In this document: one piece after another, positions 18,724 through 59,929 of the stretch
Position numbering within the stretch: the stretch's first letter is position 1
How the letters are laid out: every line of letters begins with the position of its first letter
From: an uncultured Planctomycetia bacterium
Lineage (GTDB): Bacteria > Omnitrophota > Gorgyraeia > Tantalellales > Tantalellaceae
Reading direction: 5' to 3'
DNA: 64,000 nucleotides
Assembly: GCA_964565425.1 (NCBI GenBank)
Contig: CAZMEZ010000004.1
Location: 24,907-88,906, forward strand
Notes under the pieces: generated by a model
What the model saw: only the letters and a program-made list of their open reading frames with translations
Database searches by the model: none
What the model was told of the DNA's origin: nothing
Translations under genes and position numbers: made by a program

Positions 18724-18727
18724 CGTT

Positions 18728-20613: not shown

Positions 20614-20629
20614 CGGGCAAGGGCGTATC

Positions 20630-22035: not shown

Positions 22036-22049
22036 CATAGGAGAAGTAT

Positions 22050-23249: not shown

Positions 23250-23273
23250 CCATATTAATAAAGGCCGAAAAGT

Positions 23274-24431: not shown

Positions 24432-24484
24432 GCGGGGTCCACTGCAGGACAAGGGAGCCGCTGAAGCCGCGGGAAAGAGGCGAT

Positions 24485-27050: not shown

Positions 27051-27051
27051 A

Positions 27052-31943: not shown

Positions 31944-31960
31944 AGGGGTATATCCGGGAC

Positions 31961-33394
31961 ATGGCGAAAATATTGCTTATACATCCGCCTTTCGGCACCG
32001 GGGACGATAAACGTCCGCCGGACATCTTTGATCCGCATTTCCCCTGGGGCCTTGGCTATATAAGCGGGACGCTTAAGAAAGAAGGATACGATATCAAGGT
32101 CTTTGACATATACGTCCACCAGTGGGACAAGGCCGAGACCCTCGAAAAACTGAAGCTCGAGGAATACGACCTCGCGCTGATAACGGCCATGGCGACGCAA
32201 TATTTATACGTGAAATGGCTGGCCGGGGAGCTCAAAAAGAACCAAAAAGTGTGTAAGGTGATCCTCGGCGGCCAGCTTGCCACGTTCAGCCATGAAGTCG
32301 TCCTCAGGAATACGGCGGTCGATATCTGCGTCATAGGGGAAGGCGACGTAACGATAGTGGATCTTGTAAAGAACATCGATACTCCTCGCAGTGTTAAAGG
32401 GATAGCGCTCGGGGATGGAGATAAAGTGCTTAAGACCGGCCCCAGGGAGCTCATCAAGGACATCGACAGCATCCCGAACCCCGCGTACGAGCTTTTCAGG
32501 ATGGATATTTACAGGACGAACAAGCTTTATATACACCATAAATCGGCGGTCCTGTACAGCGAGCGGAAAAGGCCGCACGTGATGGCGATGATCACCGGGA
32601 GGGGGTGTCCCTTCGGTTGTAATTTTTGCAGCAGGACCTTCAGGAATATAAGGATAAGGTCCGTCGAATCGATCGTGAGGGAGATAGATTTTTTCATCAA
32701 GGAATACGGCGTAGGCGGCATAAACTTCGTGGACGAACTGCTGTTCCTAAAACAGGACACGATAGACCGCCTGGCGGAAGAACTCGGGAAGAGGGGGATC
32801 CTGTGGAACGGGCAGGCGAGGGTGGATACCATAAATCTTGAACGCCTGGAATTTTACAAGAAGAACGGCCTGGTCTCCATAGGGTTCGGAGTGGAATCGG
32901 GAAGCGACCTCATGCTCGAGAAGATGAATAAGGGCATCACCAGAGAGAAGATAGAAAGGGCGATACGGAAGACGCTGGAAGCGGGCCTGCATCTCAAGAT
33001 GACGCTGATCTTCGGGTATCCGGGAGAAACCCGCGAGACCCTGGAAGAGACGGTCGACATGTTCAGGCGCCTCAGGCATCCCGGCAGGAGGTTCTGTATT
33101 TTAACTCCTTTGCCCGGGTCGAAAGTCTATGAGTCGGCGAAGGAAGAGGGATTGATCTCCGATGAGGACGAATACCTTTCCAGCATATGCGAAGGGTATT
33201 GGAGAAGGGCCGTGAACATGACGGGGTTCGGGGATGACGAATTCGAGAAGGTCCGCTCGGAGACCGAAAGGAAGATGAGGGAGAATTATAAAGAATATCT
33301 TTCATCGCTGCCTCAGGACGAGGCGCGAGAACAATATTTACTGTGTGAAGAGGATTTCGAAAAGGATTTTATCAACAGACCGAAAGTGCAGTAG
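31961..33394 (+). CDS. B12-binding radical SAM enzyme (class B)
   Basis: N-terminal cobalamin-binding Rossmann-like domain, then CPFGCNFC (the CxxxCxxC radical-SAM motif). Confidence 0.8.
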   Translation: MAKILLIHPPFGTGDDKRPPDIFDPHFPWGLGYISGTLKKEGYDIKVFDIYVHQWDKAETLEKLKLEEYDLALITAMATQYLYVKWLAGELKKNQKVCKVILGGQLATFSHEVVLRNTAVDICVIGEGDVTIVDLVKNIDTPRSVKGIALGDGDKVLKTGPRELIKDIDSIPNPAYELFRMDIYRTNKLYIHHKSAVLYSERKRPHVMAMITGRGCPFGCNFCSRTFRNIRIRSVESIVREIDFFIKEYGVGGINFVDELLFLKQDTIDRLAEELGKRGILWNGQARVDTINLERLEFYKKNGLVSIGFGVESGSDLMLEKMNKGITREKIERAIRKTLEAGLHLKMTLIFGYPGETRETLEETVDMFRRLRHPGRRFCILTPLPGSKVYESAKEEGLISDEDEYLSSICEGYWRRAVNMTGFGDDEFEKVRSETERKMRENYKEYLSSLPQDEAREQYLLCEEDFEKDFINRPKVQ

Positions 33395-33412
33395 GGCCGG
33401 ATATCAAGGAGG

Positions 33413-34351
33413 ATGGATATGAATAACGGGAAAAACGCAAAAAAGGGCCTGAATATAATGGTGACGGGCGGGTCGGGCTTCCTCGGAAGCCATATAGCGG
33501 ACGCCTTGACGGGCGCCGGGCACAAGGTGACCATATTCGACATCAAGGAGTCGCCGCATCTCAGGGCCGGGCAGCAAATGGCCCGGGGGGATATTCTTGA
33601 CGCGGAAGAACTTGTCCGCCGGATGAAGGGCATGGACGTCGTGTTCCACCTCGCGGCGCTGGCCGACCTCGACGCGGCCTACGACAAACCCCACGAGACG
33701 ATGAAGATCAACGTCCTGGGGACGGCCAACGTGCTGGAGGCCGCCCGTATCAACAACGTGGGCCGGGTGGTGTTCGCCAGCACCATATACGTGAACAGCC
33801 GCACGGGATCGTTCTACCGGGTGAGCAAGCATTCCTGCGAGCTGCTGTTCGAGGGGTACCACGAGAGGTACGGCCTGGATTACACGATCCTCCGGTTCGG
33901 AACGCTCTACGGCCCTCGCGCCAGCGACAATAACAGCGTTTTCAGGTACCTGAAAGAGGCGCTGGATACCGGGAAAATAAAGTACAAGGGGACGGGCGAA
34001 GAGGTAAGGGAATATATTCACGTCCGCGACGCGGCCAGGATATGCGCGAAGATCCTGGACGGCGATTTCAGGGGCAAGACGCTGATCCTGACCGGCCACC
34101 ACCGCATGAGGTTGGAAGAACTCCTGAACATGGTGAAGGAAATACTCGACAGCAGGGACAGGAAGATAGAGATAACCTGCAACCCGAAGGAATCGGAATC
34201 GCATTACGTCCAGACCCCGTATTCCTACATACCCCGCGTAGGCGAAAAGATAATAACCAATACCTACTGCGATCTCGGGCAGAGCCTTGTCGAGATACTG
34301 GACGAGATCGGGTCGAAAAGGTCCCATAAAGAGATAGAGATAAAGATCTGA
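33413..34351 (+). CDS. NAD-dependent epimerase/dehydratase (SDR family)
   Basis: VTGGSGFLGSH motif and YRVSKHS (YxxxK). The antisense ORF 33404-34648 is a shadow. Confidence 0.75.
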   Translation: MDMNNGKNAKKGLNIMVTGGSGFLGSHIADALTGAGHKVTIFDIKESPHLRAGQQMARGDILDAEELVRRMKGMDVVFHLAALADLDAAYDKPHETMKINVLGTANVLEAARINNVGRVVFASTIYVNSRTGSFYRVSKHSCELLFEGYHERYGLDYTILRFGTLYGPRASDNNSVFRYLKEALDTGKIKYKGTGEEVREYIHVRDAARICAKILDGDFRGKTLILTGHHRMRLEELLNMVKEILDSRDRKIEITCNPKESESHYVQTPYSYIPRVGEKIITNTYCDLGQSLVEILDEIGSKRSHKEIEIKI

Positions 34352-34361
34352 AGGCAAAAAG

Positions 34362-36185
34362 ATGAAGAATAATAAGTTCGAGACGATTAAGAACCTGGGA
34401 TATCTGATAAAACGGAGGCCGGGAGCGCTTGCCTGGTTCACCGGTGTAATAACCCTCGCCGGTGTCCTGGAGGCCTTCGGCATAGGTCTGTTGTATCCCA
34501 TCATGAGCGTGCTGGAGGACCACGCGAAAAGAGCGGGATACGTGACGCGGGTCAATGACCTGCTGGGGACCAGCCTGACGGAAAGCGTATTCATAACCGC
34601 GCTTCTCTCGACGGCTCTTTTGCTTTTCATCCTTCGTGGCCTGTCCATAATAGGTTCGTATTACGGGCAATACCGGCTGACCGAGGGGCTGCGAATAGAT
34701 TTCCAGTCGACCATATTCACGAATGATCTGGACCAGGAATACGAATATTTCGTGAAACACAGGACAGGGGACCTGGTGCAGAAACAAATGATACACACCG
34801 AAATGGCCGGGGACGCGGTCCTGTACTCCTGCCAGATAGCCCGCAACCTTTTTACCGCCGCGTGTCTTTACGTGACGCTTTGTATCGTTTCGCTGAAAGG
34901 GGCGCTAATGCTCACGGGGATAATGGCCGTGCTGACAGTGGTAGCGCTTATAGTTTCCAAAGTGAAGATATACGCGGCTTCACAGGAACATGCCGACCTG
35001 CAGAAGAGGGCGTATTCCATCGCGGTCGAGACGATGACGGGCATAAGGCAGGTAAAGGCTTTCCTGGCCGAGCAATTCTTCTCGAAAAAATTCGGAGAAA
35101 CGATTACAAGGAAAGCCGCTATCTACAGGAAGAACGCCACCATAGGCCAGATGCCCACGCCTGTCATGCAGACGAGCGTCCTGGTGGGGGTCGTAGCGGT
35201 GCTTTTTCTCGCGTTCAGGTATAAAGGCAGCGTGAGCGGACTCCTTCCCCTGGTGGTCGTTTTCGGGGGAGGCGCTTACAGGATAATCTCTTCCGTGGCG
35301 GGACTCAACAGCAGCTTCATGCAGATAGCGCACCTCTTGCCTTCGGTGAACATAGTCGCGGACCTCTTGAAGTGGAAGCCCGTTCATGAAAACCTTGCCG
35401 GGGCGGGCCGTTTTGAAAAGGATATAGTCTTCGAGGAAGTGGAATTCTCGTACCCGAGGGAAGGGTTCAAGCTTTCCGGCATCGACCTCGAGTTCGAGAA
35501 AGGGAAATTTTACGGTATCGTGGGGTCTTCCGGCAGCGGGAAATCCACTCTGGTGGACCTTATCATAAAGTTCTATCACCCCGGGAGGGGCAGGATACTG
35601 GTCGACGGGAAGGACCTTAAGGGGATGGACGCGCGCTCCTGGCGCAAGCAGATCGGCCTCATAAGCCAGGAGACGTTCATATTTAACGGGACAATAGAGG
35701 AGAACATATCTTTCGCGGTGGACGAGGCGGAAAAGGATACAGGCAGGATAGAGGCAGCCGCGAGGACCGCCGACCTGCACGACTTTATTAAAAGCCTGCC
35801 GGAAGGTTACGGGACGATTGTGGGAGAAAGAGGCCTCACGCTCTCCGGGGGGCAGAGGCAGCGGCTCGCGATCGCGAGGGCCGTTTACAGGGATCCCGAG
35901 ATATACATATTCGACGAGGCGACGAGTTCCCTGGACACGCATTCGGAGAAAAGGATACAAGGGGCCATAGAAGAACTGAGCCGGTCAAAGACCGTCATAG
36001 CGGTGGCCCACAGGTTGTCCACGGTGGTCCATGCCGACGAGATCATCGCGATGAAGGACGGCAGGATAATGGAAAAAGGCCCTCATTCGGATCTGATGGA
36101 AAGGGAAGGTTTCTACGCCGGGCTATACACGCACCAATACTCCGCGGAACGGAGACAGAAGGAAGGGGACGCGGTAAGCTCTTAA
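34362..36185 (+). CDS. ABC transporter, fused permease/ATPase (MsbA-like exporter)
   Basis: Six-transmembrane-helix domain plus Walker A GSSGSGKST, LSGGQRQR signature and Walker B IFDEATS. Confidence 0.8.
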   Translation: MKNNKFETIKNLGYLIKRRPGALAWFTGVITLAGVLEAFGIGLLYPIMSVLEDHAKRAGYVTRVNDLLGTSLTESVFITALLSTALLLFILRGLSIIGSYYGQYRLTEGLRIDFQSTIFTNDLDQEYEYFVKHRTGDLVQKQMIHTEMAGDAVLYSCQIARNLFTAACLYVTLCIVSLKGALMLTGIMAVLTVVALIVSKVKIYAASQEHADLQKRAYSIAVETMTGIRQVKAFLAEQFFSKKFGETITRKAAIYRKNATIGQMPTPVMQTSVLVGVVAVLFLAFRYKGSVSGLLPLVVVFGGGAYRIISSVAGLNSSFMQIAHLLPSVNIVADLLKWKPVHENLAGAGRFEKDIVFEEVEFSYPREGFKLSGIDLEFEKGKFYGIVGSSGSGKSTLVDLIIKFYHPGRGRILVDGKDLKGMDARSWRKQIGLISQETFIFNGTIEENISFAVDEAEKDTGRIEAAARTADLHDFIKSLPEGYGTIVGERGLTLSGGQRQRLAIARAVYRDPEIYIFDEATSSLDTHSEKRIQGAIEELSRSKTVIAVAHRLSTVVHADEIIAMKDGRIMEKGPHSDLMEREGFYAGLYTHQYSAERRQKEGDAVSS

Positions 36186-36199
36186 GGCGGGTAAAGATC

Positions 36200-37942
36200 A
36201 TGGAACGATCGGGTAAAGAACTGATAATACTTGTGGATAAGGCCGGGCTGGCGGCCGCAGGCCGTTCGCTCCTGGAAAGGTGCGATCGTGTTGCCATGAC
36301 CCCGGACGCGATACTCGCCTTAGAGGAAGAAGGTCTGTCCTTTTCCACGTTCGACGATATTTACGGGTACAGGCAGTTTCGCGAGGACAACCTAAGGATG
36401 ATGGATGAGACGGAAGACCTGTTCAGGGATCTGGACAGGAAATACAGCGCGTCTTTGGAGTATCCCCGCGCTTTTACGGGCAATATACTGTGGTTCCTGG
36501 TGTTCTTTGCCAACGCCCTTTATCTTTCGAAAGTGTGCCGGTGGGCTAAGAACAACTATACTAAGGTCCATTTGGCCGGTAGCGCTAAGTACGACAGGCC
36601 GCTCAGGATAGACCTGGATTTCTCCGAAAGGGGGCTCGCGTTCTGCGATTTTAACCGGGAACTGGCCAGCAAGGTCAGCATGCTGAGGGATGTTTTATCC
36701 CCGGATTGTTACTGGAGCGCCAATGCCCCCCAAAGGGGCGCCGGACGGCCCGTCGGTAGACAACAGCTGTTATTTTCCGCGAGGCAGACGGTCAAAAAGC
36801 CTTTAGTCAGAGCGAGAGCGTTTTTTGAAGAACATTCAGGTAAAGATAAGGATGTCATATTCGTAGTGCGGGACAGCAATGAAGTGAATTTCGTAAAAAG
36901 ACACATGGGGGATGTTGCTCTCAAGAAACCGCTCAAGAGAATGCTCGAGGACGCGTTCGAAGGGCGTTTGGAGAAGCAGGATATCGAATGCTCTTTCGAA
37001 ACAGAGATCCGGAGTTTCGCGTTGAAATGGTTCCCGGAATTCGAAAAGCGCGTCCTGGAAGCGTTCGAGGCCTATTTTGAAAAAGCGGTTCGCTGTCTCC
37101 GGGCATTTATGGACAAAGTAGAGGAAGCGTTCAAAGCGGACTCCCCGAAGGCGGTGTTCTATTCGTTTTCCCCCAACAGGGTATACGAGGACGTGCTCGC
37201 TTACGCGGCGAACGAGAGGAACATACCCGTGTTCGCTTTCTGGCATGTCGGTTCTCATGAAAAAGACAAGGATATTTACGCGAAGTACCTGGAGAGCAAT
37301 GAAAACGTGAAAATGGATGTCCTGGAGGTAAGCAAATTCTACAACCTGCATCTGGACCGGAAGAGCGGCAGGGGCAAAGGTATTTTATACTTCCCCGGGA
37401 TCTTTAATTCATACAACTACAAGGATCTCATGGTCAACGTTCCCGATAGAGCGCTTTTTGAGGTTACCAGGGACATAGTGGAGGTTGTCGGCGAGTTCGG
37501 CGCGGAGATGGATATAAAGATACACCCTAATGACGAAGAATACAATTATACGTATTTCAGCAACCTGCTGAAGGCAAAGGGGGCCGGGAACATCGGCATA
37601 CTCAGGGGATTCCCGGCGGAAAAGATAATGAAGCATTACAGTCTCTTTATATTCGATTACGCCGGGACCAGCTTGATACCGGCTGCCGGGGTTTTCGACA
37701 CGCCGGCTATATTGTATATAACCGACGATAGTGTTTTGAGGGAGAAAGCGATCCCGGACCTGGAGAGAAAGTTCCATATGGCTCGGCACAGATCCGATCT
37801 TGTGAAGCACATTAGCCTTTATGTGCAGGGAAAACTGGAAACAAAAATAACGGGTGAGCACGCTTTCCCGGCAGGGGAAGAAGCCCCTTGCGTTAAGATG
37901 GCAGGGTATGTGAAGAGCGTGATCGATACCGTAAAAACCTGA
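36200..37942 (+). CDS. Hypothetical protein, TagF/KpsS-like putative phospho(no)transferase
   Basis: 580 aa. The C-terminal segment IKIHPNDEE ... IFDYAGTSLIPAAGVFDTPAILYITDD resembles the Glyphos_transf KxHP and D-x-S motifs. Paralogous in outline to 29491-30996. Sits immediately upstream of the PEP mutase gene. Confidence 0.35.
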   Translation: MERSGKELIILVDKAGLAAAGRSLLERCDRVAMTPDAILALEEEGLSFSTFDDIYGYRQFREDNLRMMDETEDLFRDLDRKYSASLEYPRAFTGNILWFLVFFANALYLSKVCRWAKNNYTKVHLAGSAKYDRPLRIDLDFSERGLAFCDFNRELASKVSMLRDVLSPDCYWSANAPQRGAGRPVGRQQLLFSARQTVKKPLVRARAFFEEHSGKDKDVIFVVRDSNEVNFVKRHMGDVALKKPLKRMLEDAFEGRLEKQDIECSFETEIRSFALKWFPEFEKRVLEAFEAYFEKAVRCLRAFMDKVEEAFKADSPKAVFYSFSPNRVYEDVLAYAANERNIPVFAFWHVGSHEKDKDIYAKYLESNENVKMDVLEVSKFYNLHLDRKSGRGKGILYFPGIFNSYNYKDLMVNVPDRALFEVTRDIVEVVGEFGAEMDIKIHPNDEEYNYTYFSNLLKAKGAGNIGILRGFPAEKIMKHYSLFIFDYAGTSLIPAAGVFDTPAILYITDDSVLREKAIPDLERKFHMARHRSDLVKHISLYVQGKLETKITGEHAFPAGEEAPCVKMAGYVKSVIDTVKT

Positions 37943-39649
37943 ATGGAGCGGCCTAAAATGGAAAAAATAAGAGATATACGCGAAGCTTTTGAAAGACCGG
38001 GATTGGCCCGGATAGTCGGGGCGCACGACGGGCTTACGGCGAAGCTTGTGGAGAAGAACGATTTTGACGGGGTGTGGGCGAGCGGCCTCGAGATATCCGC
38101 TTCCTACGCTATCCCCGACGCCAGCATTCTCACGATGTCGCAATACCTGGAAAGGGCCTGTGAAATGAAAGACGCGGTATCGATCCCCGTCGTCGCGGAC
38201 TGCGATACCGGATACGGCAATTCAAACAACGTGATACACATGATCAAGAAGTATGAAGCGGCGGGGATCTCCGGAGTATGCATAGAGGATAAGAGGTTCC
38301 CCAAAGTGAACAGCCTTCTCGCGGAAGGAAGGCAGGAGCTCGCTCCGATAGCCGAATTCGTGGGCAAGATAATGGCCGCGAAGAACGCCCAATGCTCGGA
38401 AAGGTTCATGGTAATAGCGAGGGTGGAAGCCCTTATAGCCGGGTGGGGGGAGCAGGAAGCCCTTCTCAGGGCCGAAAAATACGCCGAGGCCGGGGCGGAT
38501 GCCATCCTGATACATTCCAAGGCGAATACCGCCGATGAAGTCATAAGTTTCGCCCGAAAGTGGGACAGGAGGCTGCCTTTGGTCATAGTGCCTACCAATT
38601 ATCCGTCGGTCATGATGGATCTTGGTGAGAAGGAGCTGCTTGATCTGGGCATAAAAATGGTGATCTTCGCGAATCAGGGATTAAGAAGCGCTATCAGGGC
38701 CATAAACGACACTTTCGCCGAGATAAAACAGGCGGGAGGCATACATACGGTGGATGGGAAGATCGTCAGTCTTGATGAAGTTTTCCACCTGCAGGGCATG
38801 ACCGATTTCAAGAAGCAGGAGAAGGAATACCTGAAGTCGGAGAATGAAGATGTTGCCGTTATCATGCCCGCTGCCGGGAAACCGGCCCACCAGGATTCCA
38901 TCGTGCCGCTGCTCACGGACAGGCCGCTTTGCATGATAGATATCAACGGGAAGACCCTGCTTGAAAGGAATCTGAACACCCTGAAGGAATTGCGTATCAA
39001 GAACGTGAATATGGTTGTCGGCTACAAGAAAGAGAGCATCCTCAAGGGGCTCGACCTGGACGGCATAAATCTCATCACGAACGACGATTACAGGACCAAA
39101 CACCTGCTCCATTCCATCATGCTTGCCGAGCGGGAGATGAAAGACAGGACGCTTATAGTCTACGCCGACATACTGTTCGATAAGAATCTCGTCAGCAGGA
39201 TCCTGGGTCTCAAGGAGGACATAGTCCTGGTGGGGGATAACACCTACAAGAAGTATGGGAAACGCAACAAGAAACTCGAGCTGATCAAAACATCCGAACC
39301 CATGACCACCGGCAAACGGGAGATCGCCAACGACGAACTTTTTAGCGTGGAGAGGATCGGCAGGGAAGTGGACGAGGCACCCTCGAATTTTGAATTCGCG
39401 GGCATAGCTTATTTGTCAAGGAAAGGGACGCAGTCGCTGAAAAGACTTTATTGCGAAAGGAAAAAAGAATTGGAAGGCGGGGACGAAAGGTTCCATGAAG
39501 CCGGGGGTTTCGACCAGGCGTCATTTACGGATATAATACAGGAAGCGATCGACAGCGGGATTTCGGTAAAGGTGTTGCCCGTGAATTCCGGTTGGATGGA
39601 GATACATGAATTCGAGGATTACAGGTTCGCCTGTGAAAAGATAAAGTAA
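37943..39649 (+). CDS. ppm: Phosphoenolpyruvate mutase fused to a C-terminal nucleotidyltransferase (cytidylyltransferase-like) domain
   Basis: The N-terminal approximately 290 aa belong to the ICL/PEPM family and carry the PEP-mutase-specific EDKRFPKVNS motif (rather than KKCGH). The C-terminal approximately 250 aa form a GlmU/MobA-type NTP-transferase fold (VAVIMPAAGKPAHQDSIVPLL). Confidence 0.8.
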   Translation: MERPKMEKIRDIREAFERPGLARIVGAHDGLTAKLVEKNDFDGVWASGLEISASYAIPDASILTMSQYLERACEMKDAVSIPVVADCDTGYGNSNNVIHMIKKYEAAGISGVCIEDKRFPKVNSLLAEGRQELAPIAEFVGKIMAAKNAQCSERFMVIARVEALIAGWGEQEALLRAEKYAEAGADAILIHSKANTADEVISFARKWDRRLPLVIVPTNYPSVMMDLGEKELLDLGIKMVIFANQGLRSAIRAINDTFAEIKQAGGIHTVDGKIVSLDEVFHLQGMTDFKKQEKEYLKSENEDVAVIMPAAGKPAHQDSIVPLLTDRPLCMIDINGKTLLERNLNTLKELRIKNVNMVVGYKKESILKGLDLDGINLITNDDYRTKHLLHSIMLAEREMKDRTLIVYADILFDKNLVSRILGLKEDIVLVGDNTYKKYGKRNKKLELIKTSEPMTTGKREIANDELFSVERIGREVDEAPSNFEFAGIAYLSRKGTQSLKRLYCERKKELEGGDERFHEAGGFDQASFTDIIQEAIDSGISVKVLPVNSGWMEIHEFEDYRFACEKIK

Positions 39650-39662
39650 GGGGAAAAAGGAT

Positions 39663-41213: not shown

Positions 41214-41234
41214 TCTTACAAAGGATGATCGAAG

Positions 41235-45000: not shown

Positions 45001-45019
45001 TACCGCGAAGGATCTATCG

Positions 45020-45739
45020 ATGAAAGCAGTTATAGTAGCGGCAGGAAGATCGAGCAGGTTGTATCCATTGACCCTGGACACGCCGAAACCTCTCCTGGAG
45101 GTCAACGGCAGGTCCATCATCGAGCGTTCCATTTCCAATCTTCGCCGGAACGGCATAGACGAGATCGGGGTAGTGGTCGGCTATCTGCGGGAACGGTTCC
45201 TTGAAGCGCTGAAGGACGGGGTGACGTTCATCGATAACCCGCGTTACGCGACCACGAACAACATGGCTTCCCTCTGGTATGCCAGGGATTTCGTGGGGGG
45301 TGACGAGTTCGTGTATCTGCACGGGGACGTAGTGTACCACCCGGACATACTTGAAGATTGCCTGAGGTGCGACGGTGATATCACCCTGATGGTCGACAAA
45401 AAGAAGTGCGACGAAGAGGACATGAAGGTAAGGGTTGCGGGTGACCGCTTCCTGGGATCCAGCAAGGACATACCGGTGAATGAGTCCTACGGGGAGTGGA
45501 TAGGGATCGCTAAATTTTCCGCCAAGGGCGGGAGCCTGGTATTCAGCGAAATAGACAAGGTGCTGGACGACGGGAAGAACAACGCTTATGACACCTATGC
45601 TTTTACGGGACTGGCCATGCGGGATCACCCGATAGATATCTGCCATACGCGGGGCTTGTCCTGGGTCGAAATAGATTTTCCGGAAGAACTGGAAAGAGCA
45701 AAGAAGATATGCCTGGCCATGGAGAAAGAGGGGGAATGA
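45020..45739 (+). CDS. Nucleotidyltransferase (LicC-like small NTP-transferase)
   Basis: AVIVAAGRSSRLYPLTLDTPKPLL motif. 239 aa, catalytic domain only. Confidence 0.7.
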   Translation: MKAVIVAAGRSSRLYPLTLDTPKPLLEVNGRSIIERSISNLRRNGIDEIGVVVGYLRERFLEALKDGVTFIDNPRYATTNNMASLWYARDFVGGDEFVYLHGDVVYHPDILEDCLRCDGDITLMVDKKKCDEEDMKVRVAGDRFLGSSKDIPVNESYGEWIGIAKFSAKGGSLVFSEIDKVLDDGKNNAYDTYAFTGLAMRDHPIDICHTRGLSWVEIDFPEELERAKKICLAMEKEGE

Positions 45740-46653
45740 TGAGGTCCTTGAAGGATATCAGGAAAATGCAGTACGAGTATCATTACGAACATGAGATGTG
45801 CCAGTTCTTCAGGGATTGGAAGAAGGCCCCGTACTCGTATTTCAGGGGTATCATGTGGATGGAGATGAGCTCGTTCGTCGTTTATATCCTGCAGAGAACG
45901 AAGGTCACGCCCAATGCCCTCTCGGTCGCTTATTGCCTGTCCGGATTGGCCGGCGGGGTCCTGCTGGCTATCCCGATGAAGGCGACCATCCTTGCCGCTG
46001 TCTTTGTGTTCTTTTTTAAGGCGATATTCGACTGGTGCGACGGCTTGCTCGCGCGCGTAACGCGCAAATTCTCTCTTGTAGGGGATATACTGGATTGCTA
46101 CGGTGCCATTTTGGGAGCCATGGGGCTTGAGATAGGACTGGGATTCTATGTAGCCCACAGATCCGGCATGGCCCTGTATTACTATCTTATACCTCTTATT
46201 CCCTTATTTTTCTTTGGTAAGCTGCACTCGTTCGTGTTTCACATATTTTACAAGAACTATATTACGACCCCGAGATTGAAGGAACTTTTCGGCAAACAGG
46301 CGCGGGATCACGCGGCACAGGCCGCCGGCAGCGGTCCGGAAAAGGTCCTTAGCGGGGGGTTCGAAAAAATAAGGAATTTCATCAACAATTTTCTGGATCA
46401 TCGTTCCAGGACCATAGATCTTATATGCCTGTTGCTTTTGGTGGAGCAGTTCACGCCCGTTTTCGTCACATGGATAGTGTTCCTGGGGTTTGTGATCAAG
46501 GAATTTCTGTTGTTCTCGGCTTCGTTCTATGTCGTAGCGAGGCGCGGGTGGGCGGAAAAAGAGATGGAAAAGAAACTTGCAGAGATATCGGGATCTTTCC
46601 CGCGGGGGGCGGAAAAGAGCGGCGCCGAAGTTCCGGTATCGCCGGAGGAGTGA
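45736..46653 (+). CDS. CDP-alcohol phosphatidyltransferase-family membrane transferase
   Basis: DWCDGLLAR-x8-G-x3-D signature within a polytopic membrane protein. Start set at the ATG overlapping the upstream stop (ATGA). Confidence 0.65.
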   Translation: MMRSLKDIRKMQYEYHYEHEMCQFFRDWKKAPYSYFRGIMWMEMSSFVVYILQRTKVTPNALSVAYCLSGLAGGVLLAIPMKATILAAVFVFFFKAIFDWCDGLLARVTRKFSLVGDILDCYGAILGAMGLEIGLGFYVAHRSGMALYYYLIPLIPLFFFGKLHSFVFHIFYKNYITTPRLKELFGKQARDHAAQAAGSGPEKVLSGGFEKIRNFINNFLDHRSRTIDLICLLLLVEQFTPVFVTWIVFLGFVIKEFLLFSASFYVVARRGWAEKEMEKKLAEISGSFPRGAEKSGAEVPVSPEE

Positions 46654-46660
46654 TCAATCC

Positions 46661-47701
46661 ATGAACATAGAAAATCTGATAGACAGCCCGTTGAAAAAGG
46701 AAGGGGATATATGGTACGGCCCCGAGGGCGGGTACTGGTCCAACCTGGAGAGGTCCAAGAGTGAGATCTATCTGAAGGACCTGGAGGCCCTGGGTTCGAT
46801 GGAGACCATGAAAAAATATTTTCCGCAGCACGGGGACGTCATTTCCCTGAAAAGGATGGGCGGGGCCGCGACACTTGACCTTGCCCCGGGCGAAAAGGTG
46901 CTTGACGCGGGTTGCATGTGGGGAGCGCTCGCGGTGCCGCTTGCCAGGACACGGGCGGAGGTCATTGCGGTCGACCAGACCAGGGAAAGCATGCTGTTCC
47001 TGGCCAAAAGAAAGGAAGAAGAGGCCCTGGAGAACCTGCACCTGGTGTGCGGCGACCTGAAGGAAATAAAATTCAGGGAGAAGATTTTCGATAAAGTGAT
47101 CGTGAACGGCGTGCTGGAATGGGTCCCCGAAACGCAAACGGTCGAGGTGGGGAATTTTATCAGGCGGAAAAATCCTTTCCTCGAGAACCTGAAACTCCTC
47201 TTCTCGAAGCGGGAGAGAAAGGATTCCCCGAGGGAAAAACAGCGTCGTTTCCTGGGTAAGATACAAAGGGCGCTCAAGGATGACGGCACCCTTTACCTGG
47301 CGATAGAGAACAGGTACGATGTTTTTTATTTCTTCGGTATTCCCGAACCGCATTGCGGGATCAGGTTCATTTCGCTCTTGCCGCGGTGGGCGCAGGACAT
47401 CCTGTCGCTGCTCCTCAGGGGGAGGAGGTTCAGGTTGTGGACTTATTCGAAAAAGGAACTGGAGGACCTGTTGCGCGCGTCCGGGTTCTCGAAAATAAAG
47501 TTCCATTACGCTTTTCCGGATTATAAGGAACCGGAGCAGGTCTTGACGGATGAAGGGATGGAACTCTTCAGGTATTGCAAATCCGCGGGAGATAAGCCGT
47601 TCTATAAAAAGGCCGTCCTGCGGTTTATCGAGGAAGTCGTGTTCAAAAGGATGAAACTGACGTTCTTCGCGCCGAGCTTTATCGTGCACGCGGAGAAGTG
47701 A
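46661..47701 (+). CDS. Class I SAM-dependent methyltransferase
   Basis: VLDAGCMWGALA motif I. Start trimmed to the ATG after the upstream stop. The antisense ORF 46496-47689 is a shadow. Confidence 0.65.
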   Translation: MNIENLIDSPLKKEGDIWYGPEGGYWSNLERSKSEIYLKDLEALGSMETMKKYFPQHGDVISLKRMGGAATLDLAPGEKVLDAGCMWGALAVPLARTRAEVIAVDQTRESMLFLAKRKEEEALENLHLVCGDLKEIKFREKIFDKVIVNGVLEWVPETQTVEVGNFIRRKNPFLENLKLLFSKRERKDSPREKQRRFLGKIQRALKDDGTLYLAIENRYDVFYFFGIPEPHCGIRFISLLPRWAQDILSLLLRGRRFRLWTYSKKELEDLLRASGFSKIKFHYAFPDYKEPEQVLTDEGMELFRYCKSAGDKPFYKKAVLRFIEEVVFKRMKLTFFAPSFIVHAEK

Positions 47702-47868
47702 TAAGCAATAAGTGATAGGTGATAGGTAATACGTGGGCGAAAGGCTAGAGGCGAAATTGATTACGAAGATTTTGAAGTAGACGATAATCTTAGATTACGA
47801 AGATGTAATCTCCGCGATCTCATTTAAATCTCGTAATCAACGAAAAACGAATAACGCAATACGAATTT
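47702..47868. repeat. Composite intergenic heptamer-repeat element
   Basis: taagcaa/taagtga/taggtga heptamers, ggc-aga heptamers, then gaaattgattacgaagattttgaagtagacgataatcttagattacgaagatgtaatctccgcgatctcatttaaatctcgtaatcaac. Near-identical to 61585-61680. Confidence 0.7.
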
Positions 47869-47918
47869 AGCCGGGATCTTAAAGTTTACGGCTTACAGCT
47901 GACAAAGAAAGGTATGAT

Positions 47919-48803
47919 ATGAATATATTCGTGACGGGAGCGGCGGGCATGCTGGCCGAGGATGTAGCGAAGGTCTTTCGGAAAGAAGGACACCGGCTTA
48001 TTTTGACGGACATCAACAAGAGGCTCCCCGATATTGAAGCGCTGGATGTCGCCAATGACGCGGAAGTGCTTCGCCGGATAGAAGAGGCCCGCCCGGATTA
48101 CGTGTTCCACCTGGCGGCGGAAACGAACGTTGACCTCTGCGAGGAAGACCCGGAGCACGCTTACAGGGTGAACGTCAAAGGCACCGGCAACATCGCGCGC
48201 GCTTGCGGCCAGACCGGCGCGGCCATGCTCTATATCTCCAGCGGCGCCATTTTCGACGGGAAAAAAGACGCGCCGTACACGGAGGACGACAAGCCCGCCC
48301 CCGTGAGCGTGTACGGCCGCACCAAGCTTGAGGGGGAATACGAGGTAAAGGGTCTTTTGGAAAAATATTTCATTGTCCGTGCCGGATGGATGATAGGCGG
48401 ATGGGAACTCGATAAGAAGTTCGTGTACAAGATCGTCCGGCAGCTTAAAGAAGGCAGAAAGGAACTCAGGGTCGTGTCCGATAAGTTCGGAAGCCCCACT
48501 TTTACATGGGATTTCGCCGCGAACCTGATGGACCTGGTGAAAAGCGGCAAATTCGGGCTCTATCACATGGCGAATAAAGGCACCTGTTCGCGTTACGATA
48601 TCGCCGTAAAGATCGTGGAATTCATGGGGCTTAAGGGTAAGGTAAAAGTGACCCCGATAAGTTCGGACGAGTTCCCTCTGCCGGCGCCGCGGGCGCGTTC
48701 AGAGATGATAGAGAACCGGAACCTTGAAAAGCTCGGGATAAATAATATGCCGCGCTGGGAGGGATCACTGGCAAGGTATATCAGGGAGAATAAAGACAAG
48801 TAA
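47919..48803 (+). CDS. dTDP-4-dehydrorhamnose reductase-like NAD(P)-dependent sugar nucleotide reductase
   Basis: RmlD-family motifs (IFVTGAAGMLA, SDKFGSPTF). Confidence 0.7.
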   Translation: MNIFVTGAAGMLAEDVAKVFRKEGHRLILTDINKRLPDIEALDVANDAEVLRRIEEARPDYVFHLAAETNVDLCEEDPEHAYRVNVKGTGNIARACGQTGAAMLYISSGAIFDGKKDAPYTEDDKPAPVSVYGRTKLEGEYEVKGLLEKYFIVRAGWMIGGWELDKKFVYKIVRQLKEGRKELRVVSDKFGSPTFTWDFAANLMDLVKSGKFGLYHMANKGTCSRYDIAVKIVEFMGLKGKVKVTPISSDEFPLPAPRARSEMIENRNLEKLGINNMPRWEGSLARYIRENKDK

Positions 48804-48823
48804 GGAGACATTGTTACCGGAAC

Positions 48824-49759
48824 ATGAAGTTTTCGATCACCATACCTTTATTTAACGGCGCGAAATTCATAGCGAATACGCTTGATTCGGTCCTGGCGCA
48901 GACATACAAGGATTATGAAGTGATCCTGGTCAACGACGGTTCACCGGATAACATCGGTGAAGTGGTCCGCGAATACATGGGCGCGCACCCCGAAACGCGT
49001 TTTATTTACGTGGAGCAGGAGAACCGCGGGTTGGGAGGGGCGAGGAACACCGCCATAAAGCACGCTTCCGGCGATATCATAGCGATCCTGGACCAGGATG
49101 ACATCTGGTACCCGGAAAAGCTGGAGAGGGTGGCGTATATATACCGGCAGTCCCCCGAAGTCGACGTTGTATGCCACGGCCAGATAGTGCGCCGGGACGG
49201 GAAGGTGGTGCGCATTTTCGATCCCGGTCCGGACAACAATATTCACCGGAGGCTGCTCTTTGTCGATAACATGCTTTCCACCTCGGCTACGACCTTCAGG
49301 AAAGCCATTATAGATGAAATAGGGGGTTTTTCGGAGGACAGGGAGAACTTTCATTTCGCCGAGGACTATGACCTTTGGCTGAGGATGGCGGATAAAGGAT
49401 ACAAGTTCCGTTTCACCGGCGAGATCCTCGGCGAATACAGCGAACATGATTCTAATTTTTCACATAATCTGGAAGTGATGCTGGATAGCGAGATAAACGT
49501 TTTATTGAAACATTATAAGTCCTTTAAAAGCAAGAACTTAAAGGATATTTACCTGATGAGGAGGAACCTCGCGGTGGTATATTTCCGCATCTCGAGAAAA
49601 TATTTCCGGCAGAAACGCGCTCTTTACGGTCTCGGATACCTGACAAGGGCTTTCCTGCAGGACCCGTTTTTTATCGTGACATACACACCGCATTACATCG
49701 AGAAGTTAATGCGCAAAAGGGATCCGGAGATCTCGCTCGGAGAAGAATTCCGATCATGA
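48824..49759 (+). CDS. Glycosyltransferase family 2
   Basis: GT-A fold with VNDGSPD and DQDD (DxD) motifs. Confidence 0.8.
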   Translation: MKFSITIPLFNGAKFIANTLDSVLAQTYKDYEVILVNDGSPDNIGEVVREYMGAHPETRFIYVEQENRGLGGARNTAIKHASGDIIAILDQDDIWYPEKLERVAYIYRQSPEVDVVCHGQIVRRDGKVVRIFDPGPDNNIHRRLLFVDNMLSTSATTFRKAIIDEIGGFSEDRENFHFAEDYDLWLRMADKGYKFRFTGEILGEYSEHDSNFSHNLEVMLDSEINVLLKHYKSFKSKNLKDIYLMRRNLAVVYFRISRKYFRQKRALYGLGYLTRAFLQDPFFIVTYTPHYIEKLMRKRDPEISLGEEFRS

Positions 49760-51228
49760 AAATATTGTTCGTTTATCCGGGATATATCGTTAGAGAAGTG
49801 CCGCTTAACGTGATGTACGTGAGCGCGGCTATTGAAAAAGCCGGGCACCAGAGTCGTCTCTTTCACTTCAGTCCTTACCGCAGGCTTACCTGGACCAAGG
49901 ATGTCGCGGAAAGGATCGAAGAAGGTTTTCTGGAGATGATGAACGATTTCAAGCCGGATCTCGTGGCCTTCTCGGTAATGGTCCAGGATTATAACATAAC
50001 GAAATGGCTCTCCTGGCTTGCGCGTGATCGTTACAAATTACCGGTGGTATGGGGAGGCATACAGCCTATCCTTGAGCCCGACCGGAGCATAAGCGAACCC
50101 GAAGTGGATTACATATGCACGGGCGAGGGAGAGAGGGTATTCCCGGAATTCCTTGACCGGCTCCAGAGGGGCAGAGGATCGATGGAAGTGCCGGGTATCT
50201 GGGGCAAAGACGCCTCGGGAACGGTTTACCGCAACGGCCGGCCGGACTTGATCGAGGACCTGGATGAATTGCCGTTCCCGAACAGGGATCTTTTTGAGCC
50301 CGGGTATTACCGCGCGGAATTGACCGGGGCTAATATCCTCACGGCGCGCGGATGTCCTTTTCCCTGCAGCTTCTGCCAGAACAAGGCGCTGATAGAGACT
50401 TACAGGGGTAAAGGGAAGTTCATACGCTACAGGAGTTTTGATAACGTGTTCCGTGAGATGGAAGAGGTCATTGAAAAATACCAGGCGCCGTCATTCTATT
50501 TTTCCGACGAAATGTTCACGCTTAATAAGCAACGGGCGCTGGATTTCTGCCGGGAATACAAAAACCGCATCAATAAACCTTTTATGGTGCAGACCCGCGC
50601 TGATTACGTGGACGAAGAACTGGCGCGCGCTTTGAGCGGAGCCGGATGCGCAATGGTTAACATGGCCATCGAAAGCGGAAACGAACATATACGGAACAAT
50701 GTCCTCAAAAAGAGCATACCGACGGAAAAGATAATGCGCGCTTATAAGCTTATGGACGATTACGGCATGATGTCCAGCAGTTTTAACATGATAGGCGTGC
50801 CGGGGGAGACTTTAGATACCATCTGGGATACCATCGAGATAAACAAAAAGCTTAAACCGGACCGTATATTGTGCTCCATATTCATGCCCCTGCCGGGCAC
50901 CGAACTCGGTGATTACTGCAAAAAGACCAGGCTGATAACGGAGGATGTGGCGGAGACTACGAATTATTATTCACAGGTCACTATCAGGAATCCCAACCTG
51001 TCGGCGCGGACGCTTATCGGTTACCAGGGGTTTTTCGACTGGTTCGTGCTTCTCCCGACCAAATTCCACGGGCTGGTGCATGTTCTGAGGATGATCTATC
51101 AGGGGCTTGTTACGCCGAAAATACCCAAAAACCCGATAAAAAGGAAACTGAGGGAAATGATCGTTGAGGCGGTGTACCAGATGAAAGCTTATCTGCCTCA
51201 AAAGAAATTTCACGCTAAAACGCGTTAG
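49756..51228 (+). CDS. B12-binding radical SAM enzyme (class B)
   Basis: B12-binding domain and CPFPCSFC motif. Confidence 0.8.
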   Translation: MKILFVYPGYIVREVPLNVMYVSAAIEKAGHQSRLFHFSPYRRLTWTKDVAERIEEGFLEMMNDFKPDLVAFSVMVQDYNITKWLSWLARDRYKLPVVWGGIQPILEPDRSISEPEVDYICTGEGERVFPEFLDRLQRGRGSMEVPGIWGKDASGTVYRNGRPDLIEDLDELPFPNRDLFEPGYYRAELTGANILTARGCPFPCSFCQNKALIETYRGKGKFIRYRSFDNVFREMEEVIEKYQAPSFYFSDEMFTLNKQRALDFCREYKNRINKPFMVQTRADYVDEELARALSGAGCAMVNMAIESGNEHIRNNVLKKSIPTEKIMRAYKLMDDYGMMSSSFNMIGVPGETLDTIWDTIEINKKLKPDRILCSIFMPLPGTELGDYCKKTRLITEDVAETTNYYSQVTIRNPNLSARTLIGYQGFFDWFVLLPTKFHGLVHVLRMIYQGLVTPKIPKNPIKRKLREMIVEAVYQMKAYLPQKKFHAKTR

Positions 51229-51244
51229 TGAGCAGGGATATCTT

Positions 51245-52591
51245 ATGGCAAAAGTACTTTTAATATCACCGCCGTTCTACAGGCTGATGAGGAGCCATTA
51301 TAACGGCCTGGACCTGGGGCTTTCTTACATAGCTTCTTTTCTCAGGCGCGGCGGCCATGAGGTCGTCATATATAACGCCGATTTTTACGACGACGACCAT
51401 TACCTGGACCAGAGGCGGCTTTTCGCCAATTTCGATCATTTCAAGATCGCCCTGGATAACCTGGAACATCCGATCTGGAGAGAAGTCCGGTTCGCGATAG
51501 GGGATATCGCTCCCGACTTCATCGGCATACAGGTCTATACCGGGACCTTCATCAGCGCCGGGAATGTAGCCGCTATAGCCAGGGAGGTGGACCCCGTCGT
51601 GAAGATAATAGCGGGCGGGACCCATCCGACGCTTGACCCCGCGGGCACCATCAAGTCAGGGGTATATGATTACGTGGTCAGGGGTGAAGGCGAGCAGGTC
51701 ATGCTGGATATAGCCAACAACGCGGATCCCCGCGGGATCAAAAGCCTGACGTTCATAGACAGTGACGGGAAGGTCGTGAACAACGATCACAACGGGTTCA
51801 TCGAAGACCTCGATTCGCTCCCATTCCCTATGAGGGACGGGTTTTATCCCGCGAAGGGTAAGGTGGACGTGGGCGCCGTCATCACGTCCCGTGGCTGTCC
51901 TTTTGAATGCACTTATTGCGCTTCACCGCGGATATGGGAGAGGAAAGTGCGGTACAGGAGCGTCGATAACGTGCTGGCGGAGCTGGAATACATGGTCAAG
52001 GCCCGCGGCGTTGAGCTGGTCAGGTTCCAGGATGACACCTTCACCCTCAATAAGGCAAGGACCATGGAAATACTGGACAAGATGATGACAAAAGGGCTTA
52101 ACGTCAAGTGGCTCTGCGATACCAGGATAGACGTTCTGGACGCAGAGATGCTCAGGATGATGAAACGGTCGGGGTGCGTCAGGCTTAAGACCGGCGTGGA
52201 ATCCGGAAGCGATAAGATACTTAAGAAGATAAAAAAAGGCATCTCGGTCGACCAGGTCAAAAAAACCGTAAAACTTATAAAGAACACGGGCATACCCCTG
52301 ACGGCATATTTCATGATAGGTTTTCCCGGAGAGACGGACGAAGACATTAGAAAGACGATAGGGCTCGCCGACGAGATCAACGCTGATTACAACAGCTTGA
52401 GCATCGTCGCGCCATATTTCGGCACGCAGGTTTACAAAGACCTCATTGATTCGGGGTTCGATTTTACGAAGCCGCACTGGGAATATTTTTACCACCAGAG
52501 CAAGGAGATGATACTCAACGCGAATATTTCCAAGCATCTTATAGACGAATTTTTCAGTCTTAACGAAAAAAGCAGGGAAGGAAGAATATGA
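51245..52591 (+). CDS. B12-binding radical SAM enzyme (class B)
   Basis: B12-binding domain and CPFECTYC motif. Confidence 0.8.
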   Translation: MAKVLLISPPFYRLMRSHYNGLDLGLSYIASFLRRGGHEVVIYNADFYDDDHYLDQRRLFANFDHFKIALDNLEHPIWREVRFAIGDIAPDFIGIQVYTGTFISAGNVAAIAREVDPVVKIIAGGTHPTLDPAGTIKSGVYDYVVRGEGEQVMLDIANNADPRGIKSLTFIDSDGKVVNNDHNGFIEDLDSLPFPMRDGFYPAKGKVDVGAVITSRGCPFECTYCASPRIWERKVRYRSVDNVLAELEYMVKARGVELVRFQDDTFTLNKARTMEILDKMMTKGLNVKWLCDTRIDVLDAEMLRMMKRSGCVRLKTGVESGSDKILKKIKKGISVDQVKKTVKLIKNTGIPLTAYFMIGFPGETDEDIRKTIGLADEINADYNSLSIVAPYFGTQVYKDLIDSGFDFTKPHWEYFYHQSKEMILNANISKHLIDEFFSLNEKSREGRI

Positions 52592-54592: not shown

Positions 54593-54614
54593 AAAACGCA
54601 GAGGCTCCTGAAAA

Positions 54615-55760: not shown

Positions 55761-55811
55761 AATTTCGAAGCTGTTATATATTACGGGGGGAATTATTTTT
55801 GGCGGAGGGCC

Positions 55812-55840
55812 TTTAACTTTTTAAAATTAACGGTATAATA
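55812..55840 (+). promoter_or_regulatory. Possible AT-rich sigma70-type promoter upstream of the oxidoreductase gene
   Basis: TATAAT at 55835-55840 with a weak -35 (tttaac) 17 nt upstream. Lies in the only sizable non-repeat intergenic gap of the 3' half of the glycan locus. Confidence 0.3.
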
Positions 55841-55872
55841 AAACATCAAAAAAAAAGAAAAAGGAGAGTGGC

Positions 55873-56859: not shown

Positions 56860-56871
56860 CAGGGGGATTAA

Positions 56872-59800: not shown

Positions 59801-59929
59801 CATGCTCCATACCTGTCCGCTGGACGCCGGACGCTGCCCGCTGAACTAAACCGTTGCATCAAATCCCCATTAGCGATAAACTATTATAATATTGCTTATG
59901 GCACAAACATATGTAAACGGCAGGAAGAG

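Follow-up and report, generated by a model that had tools for sequence, protein, structure and literature searches.

The 64 kb window described here (positions 24,907 to 88,906 of contig CAZMEZ010000004.1) is Candidatus Omnitrophota DNA in which a single locus of ~46 kb, confined to one strand, serves a decorated cell-surface glycan. Five genes for B12-type radical S-adenosylmethionine (SAM) proteins are spread across three cassettes of this locus. They are named RS1 to RS5 after the starts of their open reading frames (ORFs; 31961, 39663, 43510, 49756 and 51245, respectively), and loci of relatives carry L-numbers. The central observation is that RS2 and RS3 lie inside a cassette that, by the predicted identities of its enzymes, is a genuine phosphonate pathway, and that relatives of both proteins recur beside phosphonate genes in other lineages. 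On the reading developed below, RS2 and RS3 would alkylate a CMP-activated phosphonate, RS4 and RS5 would belong to an aminosugar module, and RS1 would tailor a nonulosonic acid; taken as a whole, this reading has, in our judgement, an even chance of being correct. The ORF list and Pfam annotation place the surface-glycan locus at 15113..57444 on the + strand, with 39 ORFs, all on that strand. Gaps between them are mostly at most 28 bp, or the genes overlap, with exceptions of 53, 112, 217 and 343 bp. The surface-glycan setting proposed in an earlier, sequence-only reading of this DNA is upheld, and the glycosyltransferases (GT2, GT4), short-chain dehydrogenases/reductases (SDRs), DegT aminotransferases and two SAM methyltransferases that it described as interleaved with the radical SAM genes were all found.

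Five radical SAM subfamilies and a phosphonate cassette

All five radical SAM genes are intact ORFs:

31961..33394, + strand: RS1, B12-binding radical SAM protein of an orphan subfamily (477 aa; CPFGCNFC at aa 216)
39663..41213, + strand: RS2, B12-binding radical SAM protein of a PepM-linked family (516 aa; CPEKCAFC at aa 253)
43510..45000, + strand: RS3, B12-binding radical SAM protein in the Fom3 position of its cassette (496 aa; CPYNCTYC at aa 231)
49756..51228, + strand: RS4, B12-binding radical SAM protein nearest to RS3 (490 aa; CPFPCSFC at aa 200)
51245..52591, + strand: RS5, B12-binding radical SAM protein at the head of an RS5-DegT-SDR-GT4 module (448 aa; CPFECTYC at aa 218)

The CxxxCxxC motifs are exactly those quoted in the earlier reading, and the class-B architecture that it claimed for all five proteins was seen in 5/5; its observation is thus confirmed, and lies well outside what chance would give. 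In Pfam, the radical SAM domain (PF04055) was matched in each protein with E = 2e-17 to 3e-32, and the B12-binding domain (PF02310) lies N-terminal to it in every case. The PF02310 match scored 46.8-64.5 bits in RS1, RS2, RS4 and RS5, strongest in RS5 (64.5 bits), against a gathering score of 32.1, whereas in RS3 it was borderline (31.7 bits). The AlphaFold model of RS3 (mean pLDDT 92.8) has a beta-alpha N-terminal domain, and its full-length alignments with TsrM, OxsB, MgmA/QCMT and CysS, all cobalamin enzymes, span more than 500 columns. RS3 starts with a TTG codon and has 496 aa here and 495 aa in its database copy.

The five proteins had been called paralogues, a description that does not hold. 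Pairwise identity is only 22-30%, with RS4 and RS3 the closest pair (30%), and therefore they represent five distinct subfamilies rather than recent paralogues; a recent duplication of the five genes is rejected on the same figures. RS2, RS3 and RS5 each have orthologues of their own, at 45-70% identity, in other phyla, while RS1 has one representative at 58% identity and the next at no more than 43%. Judged by these sequence comparisons, the locus brings five subfamilies together and is not a paralogous expansion. Five such genes in one locus is not a unique count, as dense clusters of B12-type radical SAM genes occur elsewhere: six in 21 kb in a Woesearchaeota locus (L055), five in another Omnitrophota locus (L018) and four in L091.

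RS2 and RS3 fall within the cassette at 37.9-47.7 kb, whose other genes, with the one just upstream, are as follows:

36200..37942, + strand: U580, soluble 580-aa protein without a Pfam or NCBIfam match, kept upstream of PepM or the CDP-alcohol transferase in relatives
37943..39649, + strand: phosphoenolpyruvate (PEP) mutase (PepM; aa 1-300; PF13714, E = 3e-53) with a C-terminal PntC-type nucleotidyltransferase fusion (NTP_transf_3, PF12804)
41235..42392, + strand: phosphonopyruvate decarboxylase (Ppd; TIGR03297, 476.4 bits, above the cut-off of 312.5)
42392..43513, + strand: Fe-dependent alcohol dehydrogenase (Fe-ADH; PF00465/PF25137), a candidate phosphonoacetaldehyde reductase of the PhpC/FomC type
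45020..45739, + strand: stand-alone nucleotidyl (cytidylyl) transferase (PF12804/PF00483; top NCBIfam match the cytidylyltransferase part of IPCT/DIPPS)
45736..46653, + strand: membrane CDP-alcohol phosphotransferase (PF01066; likely start 45736, ORF opens 45709)
46661..47701, + strand: SAM methyltransferase (likely start 46661, ORF opens 46577; 346-aa homologues in L005 and L007)

RS2 and RS3 are packed among the PepM, Ppd, ADH and nucleotidyltransferase genes with gaps of at most 21 bp or overlaps. The catalytic motif EDKxxxxxNS, a criterion for PEP mutases (PMC6697681), is present in PepM as EDKRFPKVNS at aa 115, and a fusion with PF12804 is found in 33% of such enzymes (PMC6697681). The CDP-alcohol phosphotransferase has four transmembrane-like segments and 303-aa homologues in L005 and L007; together with the nucleotidyltransferase it forms a pair that resembles the IPCT/DIPPS arrangement. 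None of these partners (PepM, Ppd, Fe-ADH, the nucleotidyltransferases and the CDP-alcohol phosphotransferase) had appeared in the earlier reading. In L091 and L096, a U580 homologue (40% and 36% identity, respectively) immediately precedes PepM or the CDP-alcohol transferase gene, and an unannotated gene occupies the U580 position in L001 and L007. U580 may be a novel transferase. As TagF-like phosphotransferases, U580 and a second protein without domain matches, U501, were rejected, matching none of the hidden Markov models built from marine clusters.

Close relatives keep this block. In two loci with RS3 more than 90% identical (L007, L008), the full block from PepM to GT4 is present with RS2-RS5 intact, and two shorter contigs have the same gene order as far as they extend, with intact copies of RS2-RS4 in L009 and of RS2 and RS3 in L010. 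The same block runs up to RS4 in L091, where RS2 is 86% identical and RS2-RS4 are intact, and L005, which starts inside the block, has RS3-RS5 intact. Pseudogenisation in related populations, which the earlier reading had named as something that would overturn it, was thus not seen in L005, L007-L010 or L091. In L091, a sister contig, another B12-type radical SAM gene stands in the RS1 slot. Given the intact genes in relatives and the exchange of the RS1 slot, the set is modular and its genes are maintained rather than decaying. A second Omnitrophota genome (L001; RS3 72% identical) keeps the ABC, unknown, PepM, Ppd, ADH, RS3 and NTP genes, and RS2 is missing from this otherwise kept cassette. 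The Ppd gene of L005 (ZINK19 scaffold, 1508-2650) is split into ORFs of 122 and 257 aa, the result of either a frameshift or an assembly error.

Distribution of the RS2 and RS3 families

The RS2 family was followed in metagenomes with a family alignment at a threshold of at least 50% identity, which gave 80 loci (L091-L170), mostly from Tara Oceans or other marine assemblies. PepM was in the same locus in 20 of the 30 loci of at least 12 kb and in 8 of the 9 of at least 20 kb, and the median distance to the nearest PepM or Ppd gene was 1.7 kb. Other recurrent neighbours were an APS-kinase-like protein (21 loci), a PhyH dioxygenase (18), a DUF6580 membrane protein (17), a PF01467 cytidylyltransferase (15), Fe-ADH (15), a protein resembling 2-aminoethylphosphonate (AEP) transaminase (14), TagF-like transferases (11 plus 5), and NeuB, PseB or PseC (20); CDP-alcohol transferases also recur. 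The complete genome of Candidatus Nitrohelix vancouverensis has an RS2 homologue at 65% identity, with the gene order two LPG_synthase_TM, AEPT, CDP-alcohol transferase, TylF-type methyltransferase and RS2, followed on the opposite strand by a second methyltransferase and Ppd.

Several marine neighbours of RS2 homologues were looked at individually. The PhyH-family dioxygenase (L119, L126 and 16 other marine loci) has methylphosphonate hydroxylase as its top curated match, at 143 bits against a cut-off of 500, and a TauD-family dioxygenase occurs in 9 further loci. The small DUF6580 membrane protein adjoins RS2 homologues in L109, L143 and 15 other marine loci; among solved and curated proteins no relative was found that would support a role as a vitamin transporter.

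For the RS3 family, a scan of one genome per GTDB species gave 80 loci at 41-94% identity. Magnetospirillum sp. XM-1 has an orthologue of this family at 46% identity. A phosphonate core gene lay within 10 kb of the RS3-family gene in 15 of the 50 loci of at least 12 kb, and these 15 span DPANN archaea, Omnitrophota, Brocadiales and Rhodospirillales. Phosphonate genes were thus found in 24-30% of the 20-kb neighbourhoods, counts in which the 10 kb flanks truncate the Brocadiales cassettes. Given that PepM is present in only ~5% of genomes (PMC8942020), this is a strong enrichment. The linkage of RS3 to phosphonate genes is therefore enriched yet not universal.

Three contexts of RS3-like genes can be distinguished. 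In DPANN archaea and Omnitrophota, they lie inside PepM-NTP, Ppd, ADH or AEPT cassettes, often adjoining an RS2-like gene; the two kinds of gene are direct neighbours in L014, L015, L018, L019, L023, L092, L103, L149, L152 and L157. In Brocadiales, Scalindua, Rhodospirillales and Gammaproteobacteria, they stand between AP_endonuc_2 and LPG_synthase_TM, with which they form a core. Just upstream of this core, L028, L029, L036 and L047 carry Ppd, AEPT, nucleotidyltransferase and CDP-alcohol transferase genes as a cassette that is complete only in L028, and PepM-Ppd precedes the core in L066; the core may be a phosphonolipid module. A molybdopterin oxidoreductase and Iso_dh often precede the core in Scalindua and Brocadiales (L022-L056) and in Proteobacteria (L048, L066-L077). 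The third context, in Omnitrophota, candidate phyla radiation (CPR) and delta-proteobacterial genomes (L084-L089), includes a radical SAM-SPASM protein, CTP_transf_3 and an SDR.

Proposed pathway and competing chemistries

The closest model for the cassette is the fosfomycin pathway of Streptomyces (Fom1, Fom2, FomC and Fom3), which has the same set of a PEP mutase-nucleotidyltransferase fusion, Ppd, Fe-ADH and a B12-type radical SAM enzyme. There, the cytidylyltransferase domain of Fom1 makes CMP-2-hydroxyethylphosphonate (CMP-2-HEP), Fom3 methylates C2 of CMP-2-HEP, and FomD then removes CMP (PMC8158854, PMC8992657, PMC6697681). By analogy with these four enzymes, the cassette would convert PEP to phosphonopyruvate, phosphonoacetaldehyde, 2-hydroxyethylphosphonate (2-HEP) and CMP-2-HEP. 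RS3, in the Fom3 position, and/or RS2, as an accessory, would then perform a radical, probably methylcobalamin-dependent alkylation of the CMP-activated phosphonate, so that the head group would be of the 2-hydroxypropylphosphonate type or bear more methyl groups still. Transfer of the phosphonyl group by the CDP-alcohol phosphotransferase would follow, with a hydroxyl of either a lipid-linked glycan or a lipid as acceptor.

The two systems also differ. The domain order of Fom1 is reversed in the fusion of the window, where PepM is N-terminal and the partner is PF12804 rather than PF01467, and the fosfomycin cluster has one radical SAM gene while the cassette has two (RS2, RS3). Instead of the Fom4 epoxidase and FomD hydrolase, the window has the CDP-alcohol phosphotransferase and glycan genes: no domain of FomD (the CMP hydrolase) or Fom4 (the HppE epoxidase) was matched by Pfam or NCBIfam in any ORF at 15-61 kb. 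The absence of these two enzymes together with the presence of the phosphotransferase suggests that the CMP-activated product serves directly as a donor to glycan or lipid. Since RS2 is dispensable in L001, and its family occurs in ADH-type and transaminase-type cassettes, the data suggest that RS2 performs an accessory tailoring step that is independent of the C2 substituent.

A second parallel is with the PntC-type phosphonoglycan and phosphonolipid pathways (Rice et al. 2019; Li and Horsman 2022), which share the Ppm-PF12804 fusion, Ppd and nucleotidyl activation, and also surface transfer by CDP-alcohol, LicD or TagF-like transferases. As described, pathways of this type lead to AEP or HEP head groups and involve no tailoring by radical SAM enzymes; for Ppm neighbourhoods of the cell-surface type, the accessible literature mentions just one radical SAM protein, which it does not specify, in Campylobacter GCF 385. 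Each component has precedents, class-B radical SAM enzymes in phosphonate biosynthesis (Fom3, PhpK, SD_1168) as well as PntC-type surface pathways; their combination, as conserved class-B families in surface-type PepM cassettes, was not found in the accessible literature. The more specific proposal, that RS2 and RS3 represent two widespread families that alkylate CMP-activated 2-hydroxyethyl- or 2-aminoethyl-phosphonate before its attachment to a surface glycan or lipid, is put forward tentatively, with a chance that we set well short of even.

Several observations weigh against the proposed pathway. None of RS1-RS5 reaches the NCBIfam cut-off of any characterised family. PepM falls narrowly short on TIGR02320 (303.4 bits against a cut-off of 319.55), a score that nevertheless ranks above its 295.1 on the phosphonopyruvate hydrolase model, and the top NCBIfam match of the Fe-ADH, TIGR03405 (Phn_Fe-ADH), is well under its cut-off (252.5 bits against 423.7). 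The likeness of RS3 to Fom3 is one of cassette position and gene partners. No cobalamin gene and, by Rfam scan, no cobalamin riboswitch was found in the window. In PDB comparisons by sequence and by fold, AprD4, a dehydratase that does not use cobalamin, ranks level with the methylases TsrM, MgmA, TokK and CysS, and methylation and cobalamin binding by RS1-RS5 are therefore properties that we infer only. The RS2 family is found with ADH-type and aminotransferase-type cassettes alike, so its substrate is not necessarily 2-HEP. Lastly, 35 of the 50 long RS3-family loci have no phosphonate gene within 10 kb, and 23 of the 50 have the AP_endonuc_2/LPG_synthase_TM core, so the RS3 family may use another substrate, perhaps a lipid.

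These last two counts favour an alternative in which a membrane lipid or another non-phosphonate compound is the substrate of the RS3 family and the position of RS3 in the PepM cassette is incidental, and the third context, with a radical SAM-SPASM protein, CTP_transf_3 and an SDR, points the same way. However, the core itself is directly preceded by phosphonate genes in L028, L029, L036, L047 and L066, the RS3 gene lies within the cassette in both Omnitrophota and DPANN archaea, and the enrichment over the genomic frequency of PepM is strong. We regard this alternative as improbable.

A different phosphonate chemistry has also been considered for RS2, namely P-methylation as by PhpK or SD_1168 (Sden_1168), which are likewise class-B radical SAM enzymes in PepM clusters; the outcome would be a head group with a C-P-C phosphinate. 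Among curated models, RS2 matches that of the Sden_1168 P-methyltransferases (NF038361) best, by a wide margin (236 bits, with the runner-up at 146) and over nearly the full length. While this is the best curated match of RS2, the score is far under the cut-off of 575, and that on the PhpK model (TIGR04479) is 119.5 bits, the best among RS1-RS5 being at most 142.6, against a cut-off of 600. Moreover, the window lacks a route to an H-phosphinate: no enzyme that makes one (HEPD or a PhpD-type dioxygenase) was matched by Pfam or NCBIfam in the locus. P-methylation by RS2 is very unlikely.

It has to be considered, further, that some or all of the five proteins perform non-methylating radical chemistry (dehydration, deamination or rearrangement), as do AprD4, DesII, HpnJ, OxsB and BchE. 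BchE (TIGR02026, cut-off 481) is the top curated model for RS1 (170.6 bits) and RS3 (113 bits), HpnJ (TIGR03471, cut-off 578) is that for RS4 (130 bits) and RS5 (195.8 bits), and all five score 63.6-126 bits on the AprD4 model (NF033070, cut-off 500). The nearest solved structures by sequence are AprD4 and MgmA/QCMT (9CCB), with AprD4 the first PDB sequence match for RS2-RS5 and the second for RS1. When the high-confidence models of RS3 and RS2 were searched against PDB folds, AprD4, TsrM, MgmA, TokK, CysS and OxsB were inseparable as neighbours. AprD4, the radical SAM 1,2-diol dehydratase of apramycin biosynthesis, has the same overall two-domain fold as RS2-RS5, but it binds no cobalamin, and its substrate is an aminoglycoside diol. 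C-methylases are scattered through the similarity network of the class-B radical SAM superfamily, and AprD4 and ArsL fall in the same network though neither binds cobalamin (PMC12931638). On the other hand, the scores of RS1-RS5 on the BchE, HpnJ and AprD4 models are all 3-8 fold under the cut-offs, the sequence match to AprD4 covers chiefly the radical SAM core, and the B12-binding domain is recognisable in all five proteins, most clearly in RS5. The name "BchE" that homologues bear in JGI data is generic. Non-methylating chemistry is, in our estimation, unlikely for the set, but it retains an appreciable share of the probability.

Sugar modules, setting and significance

Alkylation of a phosphonate would account for RS2 and RS3; the remaining three genes stand among sugar-modifying genes. 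RS4 and RS5 are accompanied by the following:

47919..48803, + strand: RmlD, dTDP-4-dehydrorhamnose reductase (TIGR01214, 253.6 bits, above the cut-off of 224.05)
48824..49759, + strand: GT2 glycosyltransferase (Pfam)
52588..53748, + strand: DegT-family sugar aminotransferase (best matches PseC, LegC and DesI, all under their cut-offs)
53723..54592, + strand: short SDR, 4,6-dehydratase-like or epimerase-like (Pfam and NCBIfam)
54615..55760, + strand: GT4 glycosyltransferase (Pfam)

Homologues of RS5 from one genome each of Chloroflexota and Deltaproteobacteria and from a JGI contig (L171-L173), with identities of 50, 58 and 65%, show the order RS5, DegT, SDR in 3/3 loci, with partner proteins 50-69% identical to those of the window. 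GT4 comes directly next in two of the three, and in the Deltaproteobacteria locus a GT2 gene and another B12-type radical SAM gene intervene. RS5, DegT and the short SDR (and GT4) are therefore a module conserved across Omnitrophota, Deltaproteobacteria and Chloroflexota; no PepM was found in the three loci. RS4 accompanies RS5 in L005, L007, L008 and L096, and also occurs in L009 and L091. We propose that RS5 acts with RS4 in an NDP-aminosugar module (RmlD, GT2, RS4, RS5, DegT, SDR, GT4), in which C-methylation or some other radical reaction would modify a sugar of the 4-amino-dideoxyhexose type.

In function, RS4 and RS5 are best compared to the sugar C-methylases GenK, GenD1 and MoeK5 and, for sugar C4 deoxygenation, to DesI/DesII, in which radical SAM enzymes act on amino or deoxy sugars beside aminotransferases. 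Those enzymes belong to antibiotic pathways, not to surface glycans. RS5, DegT and the SDR could be a deoxygenation set in the style of DesI/DesII: the aminotransferase matches C4 aminotransferases of the DesI, PseC and LegC types, the SDR matches 4,6-dehydratases, and the gene order is conserved. These points add to the case for non-methylating chemistry.

The same module bears on a broader alternative, in which all five proteins are cobalamin-dependent sugar C-methyltransferases resembling GenK, GenD1 or MoeK5, the glycan is heavily C-methylated, and the phosphonate genes are independent neighbours. The class-B architecture of all five and the many sugar-nucleotide enzymes of the locus are consistent with this, as is the fact that in three phyla RS5 is bound to aminotransferase and SDR genes but has no PepM close by, and C-methylases are the most represented characterised group in the superfamily (PMC12931638). 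However, RS2 and RS3 are embedded in the PepM cassette, their families track phosphonate genes in unrelated lineages, and no curated methylase model is reached. We give this alternative a small chance. Of the "sugar or phosphonate repertoire" that the sequence-only reading had foreseen, the phosphonate part is thus the best supported, through the PepM, Ppd, Fe-ADH and cytidylyltransferase cassette and its recurrent linkage, whereas the heavily C-methylated sugars are not supported, as no methylase cut-off is attained.

The upstream third of the locus is a pseudaminic acid pathway, which also includes a GNAT gene and leads up to RS1 and on to the phosphonate cassette:

17743..18723, + strand: PseB, UDP-GlcNAc 4,6-dehydratase (inverting; TIGR03589, 496.6 bits, above the cut-off of 407.75)
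18728..19873, + strand: DegT/PseC-like aminotransferase (PF01041, E = 1e-123)
19870..20613, + strand: CMP-sugar cytidylyltransferase (CTP_transf_3; Pfam)
20630..23249, + strand: HisH-like and HisF-like pair with a WbuX N-acetyl sugar amidotransferase (TIGR03573, 317.7, above the cut-off of 203.2)
27052..28077, + strand: PseI, pseudaminic acid synthase (TIGR03586, 466 bits, above the cut-off of 340.25)
28814..29500, + strand: second CTP_transf_3 cytidylyltransferase (Pfam)
29491..30996, + strand: U501, soluble 501-aa protein without a Pfam or NCBIfam match in domain searches
30996..31943, + strand: SAM methyltransferase (Methyltransf_23; Pfam), just before RS1
33413..34351, + strand: SDR epimerase/dehydratase, with homologues immediately ahead of RS3-like genes in L084, L088 and L089
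34362..36185, + strand: ABC exporter with transmembrane and ATPase domains (Pfam)

The trio of WbuX, HisH-like and HisF-like proteins suggests an acetamidino-substituted nonulosonic acid. RS1, which stands with a methyltransferase, a CMP-transferase and an SDR behind the pseudaminic acid pathway, would probably tailor this nonulosonic acid or a side chain.

At the head of the locus (15475-17714) are genes for a D-2-hydroxyacid dehydrogenase, a cyclase-family protein and a HAD phosphatase, which may supply a glyceroyl or other hydroxyacyl substituent; in L001, a 2-Hacid_dh gene homologous to that of the window comes after a methyltransferase gene. Distal to GT4 are an oxidoreductase and an acetyltransferase and, further on, a membrane protein and an initiating phosphoglycosyl transferase:

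59783..61342, + strand: initiating phosphoglycosyl transferase (Bac_transf; Pfam)

Just upstream of the glycan locus, at 8434-12336, lie genes for a sigma-54 activator (response regulator) and a sigma-54 factor. A glycogen-type set at 20-4808, with an amylase/glucanotransferase C-terminal domain, a DUF4912 protein, a GH57 branching enzyme and GlgC, has no relation to the radical SAM finding. From 1 to 57000 purines predominate throughout on the + strand, with GC and AT skew both positive, and nearly all genes lie on it; breaks in the skew fall near 58-59 kb and 62-64 kb.

Decoration of the cell surface is thought to be the role of about half of microbial phosphonate pathways (PMC8942020). If the proposed alkylation is correct, the occurrence of two class-B families in surface PepM cassettes, one of them frequent in Tara Oceans contigs, would mean new chemistry for phosphonoglycans and phosphonolipids. 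The surface phosphonate head groups known to us are few, namely AEP, HEP and methylphosphonate with their hydroxylated or N-methylated forms, and to our knowledge radical SAM tailoring of phosphonates has so far come only from antibiotic and herbicide pathways (Fom3, PhpK). RS2 and RS3 are two concrete enzyme targets, with CMP-HEP or CMP-AEP as the candidate substrate.

Three to six B12-type radical SAM genes per surface-glycan region recur in Omnitrophota, DPANN archaea and CPR bacteria, and such a cobalamin demand would be notable for their small genomes. Should the proposal hold, Omnitrophota, DPANN archaea, anammox bacteria and abundant marine bacteria would commonly decorate their surfaces with branched phosphonates, among them 2-hydroxypropylphosphonate, the precursor of fosfomycin. 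These phosphonates would form a B12-dependent and so far unrecognised share of the natural phosphonate pool, and phosphonate production would be tied to the availability of vitamin B12.

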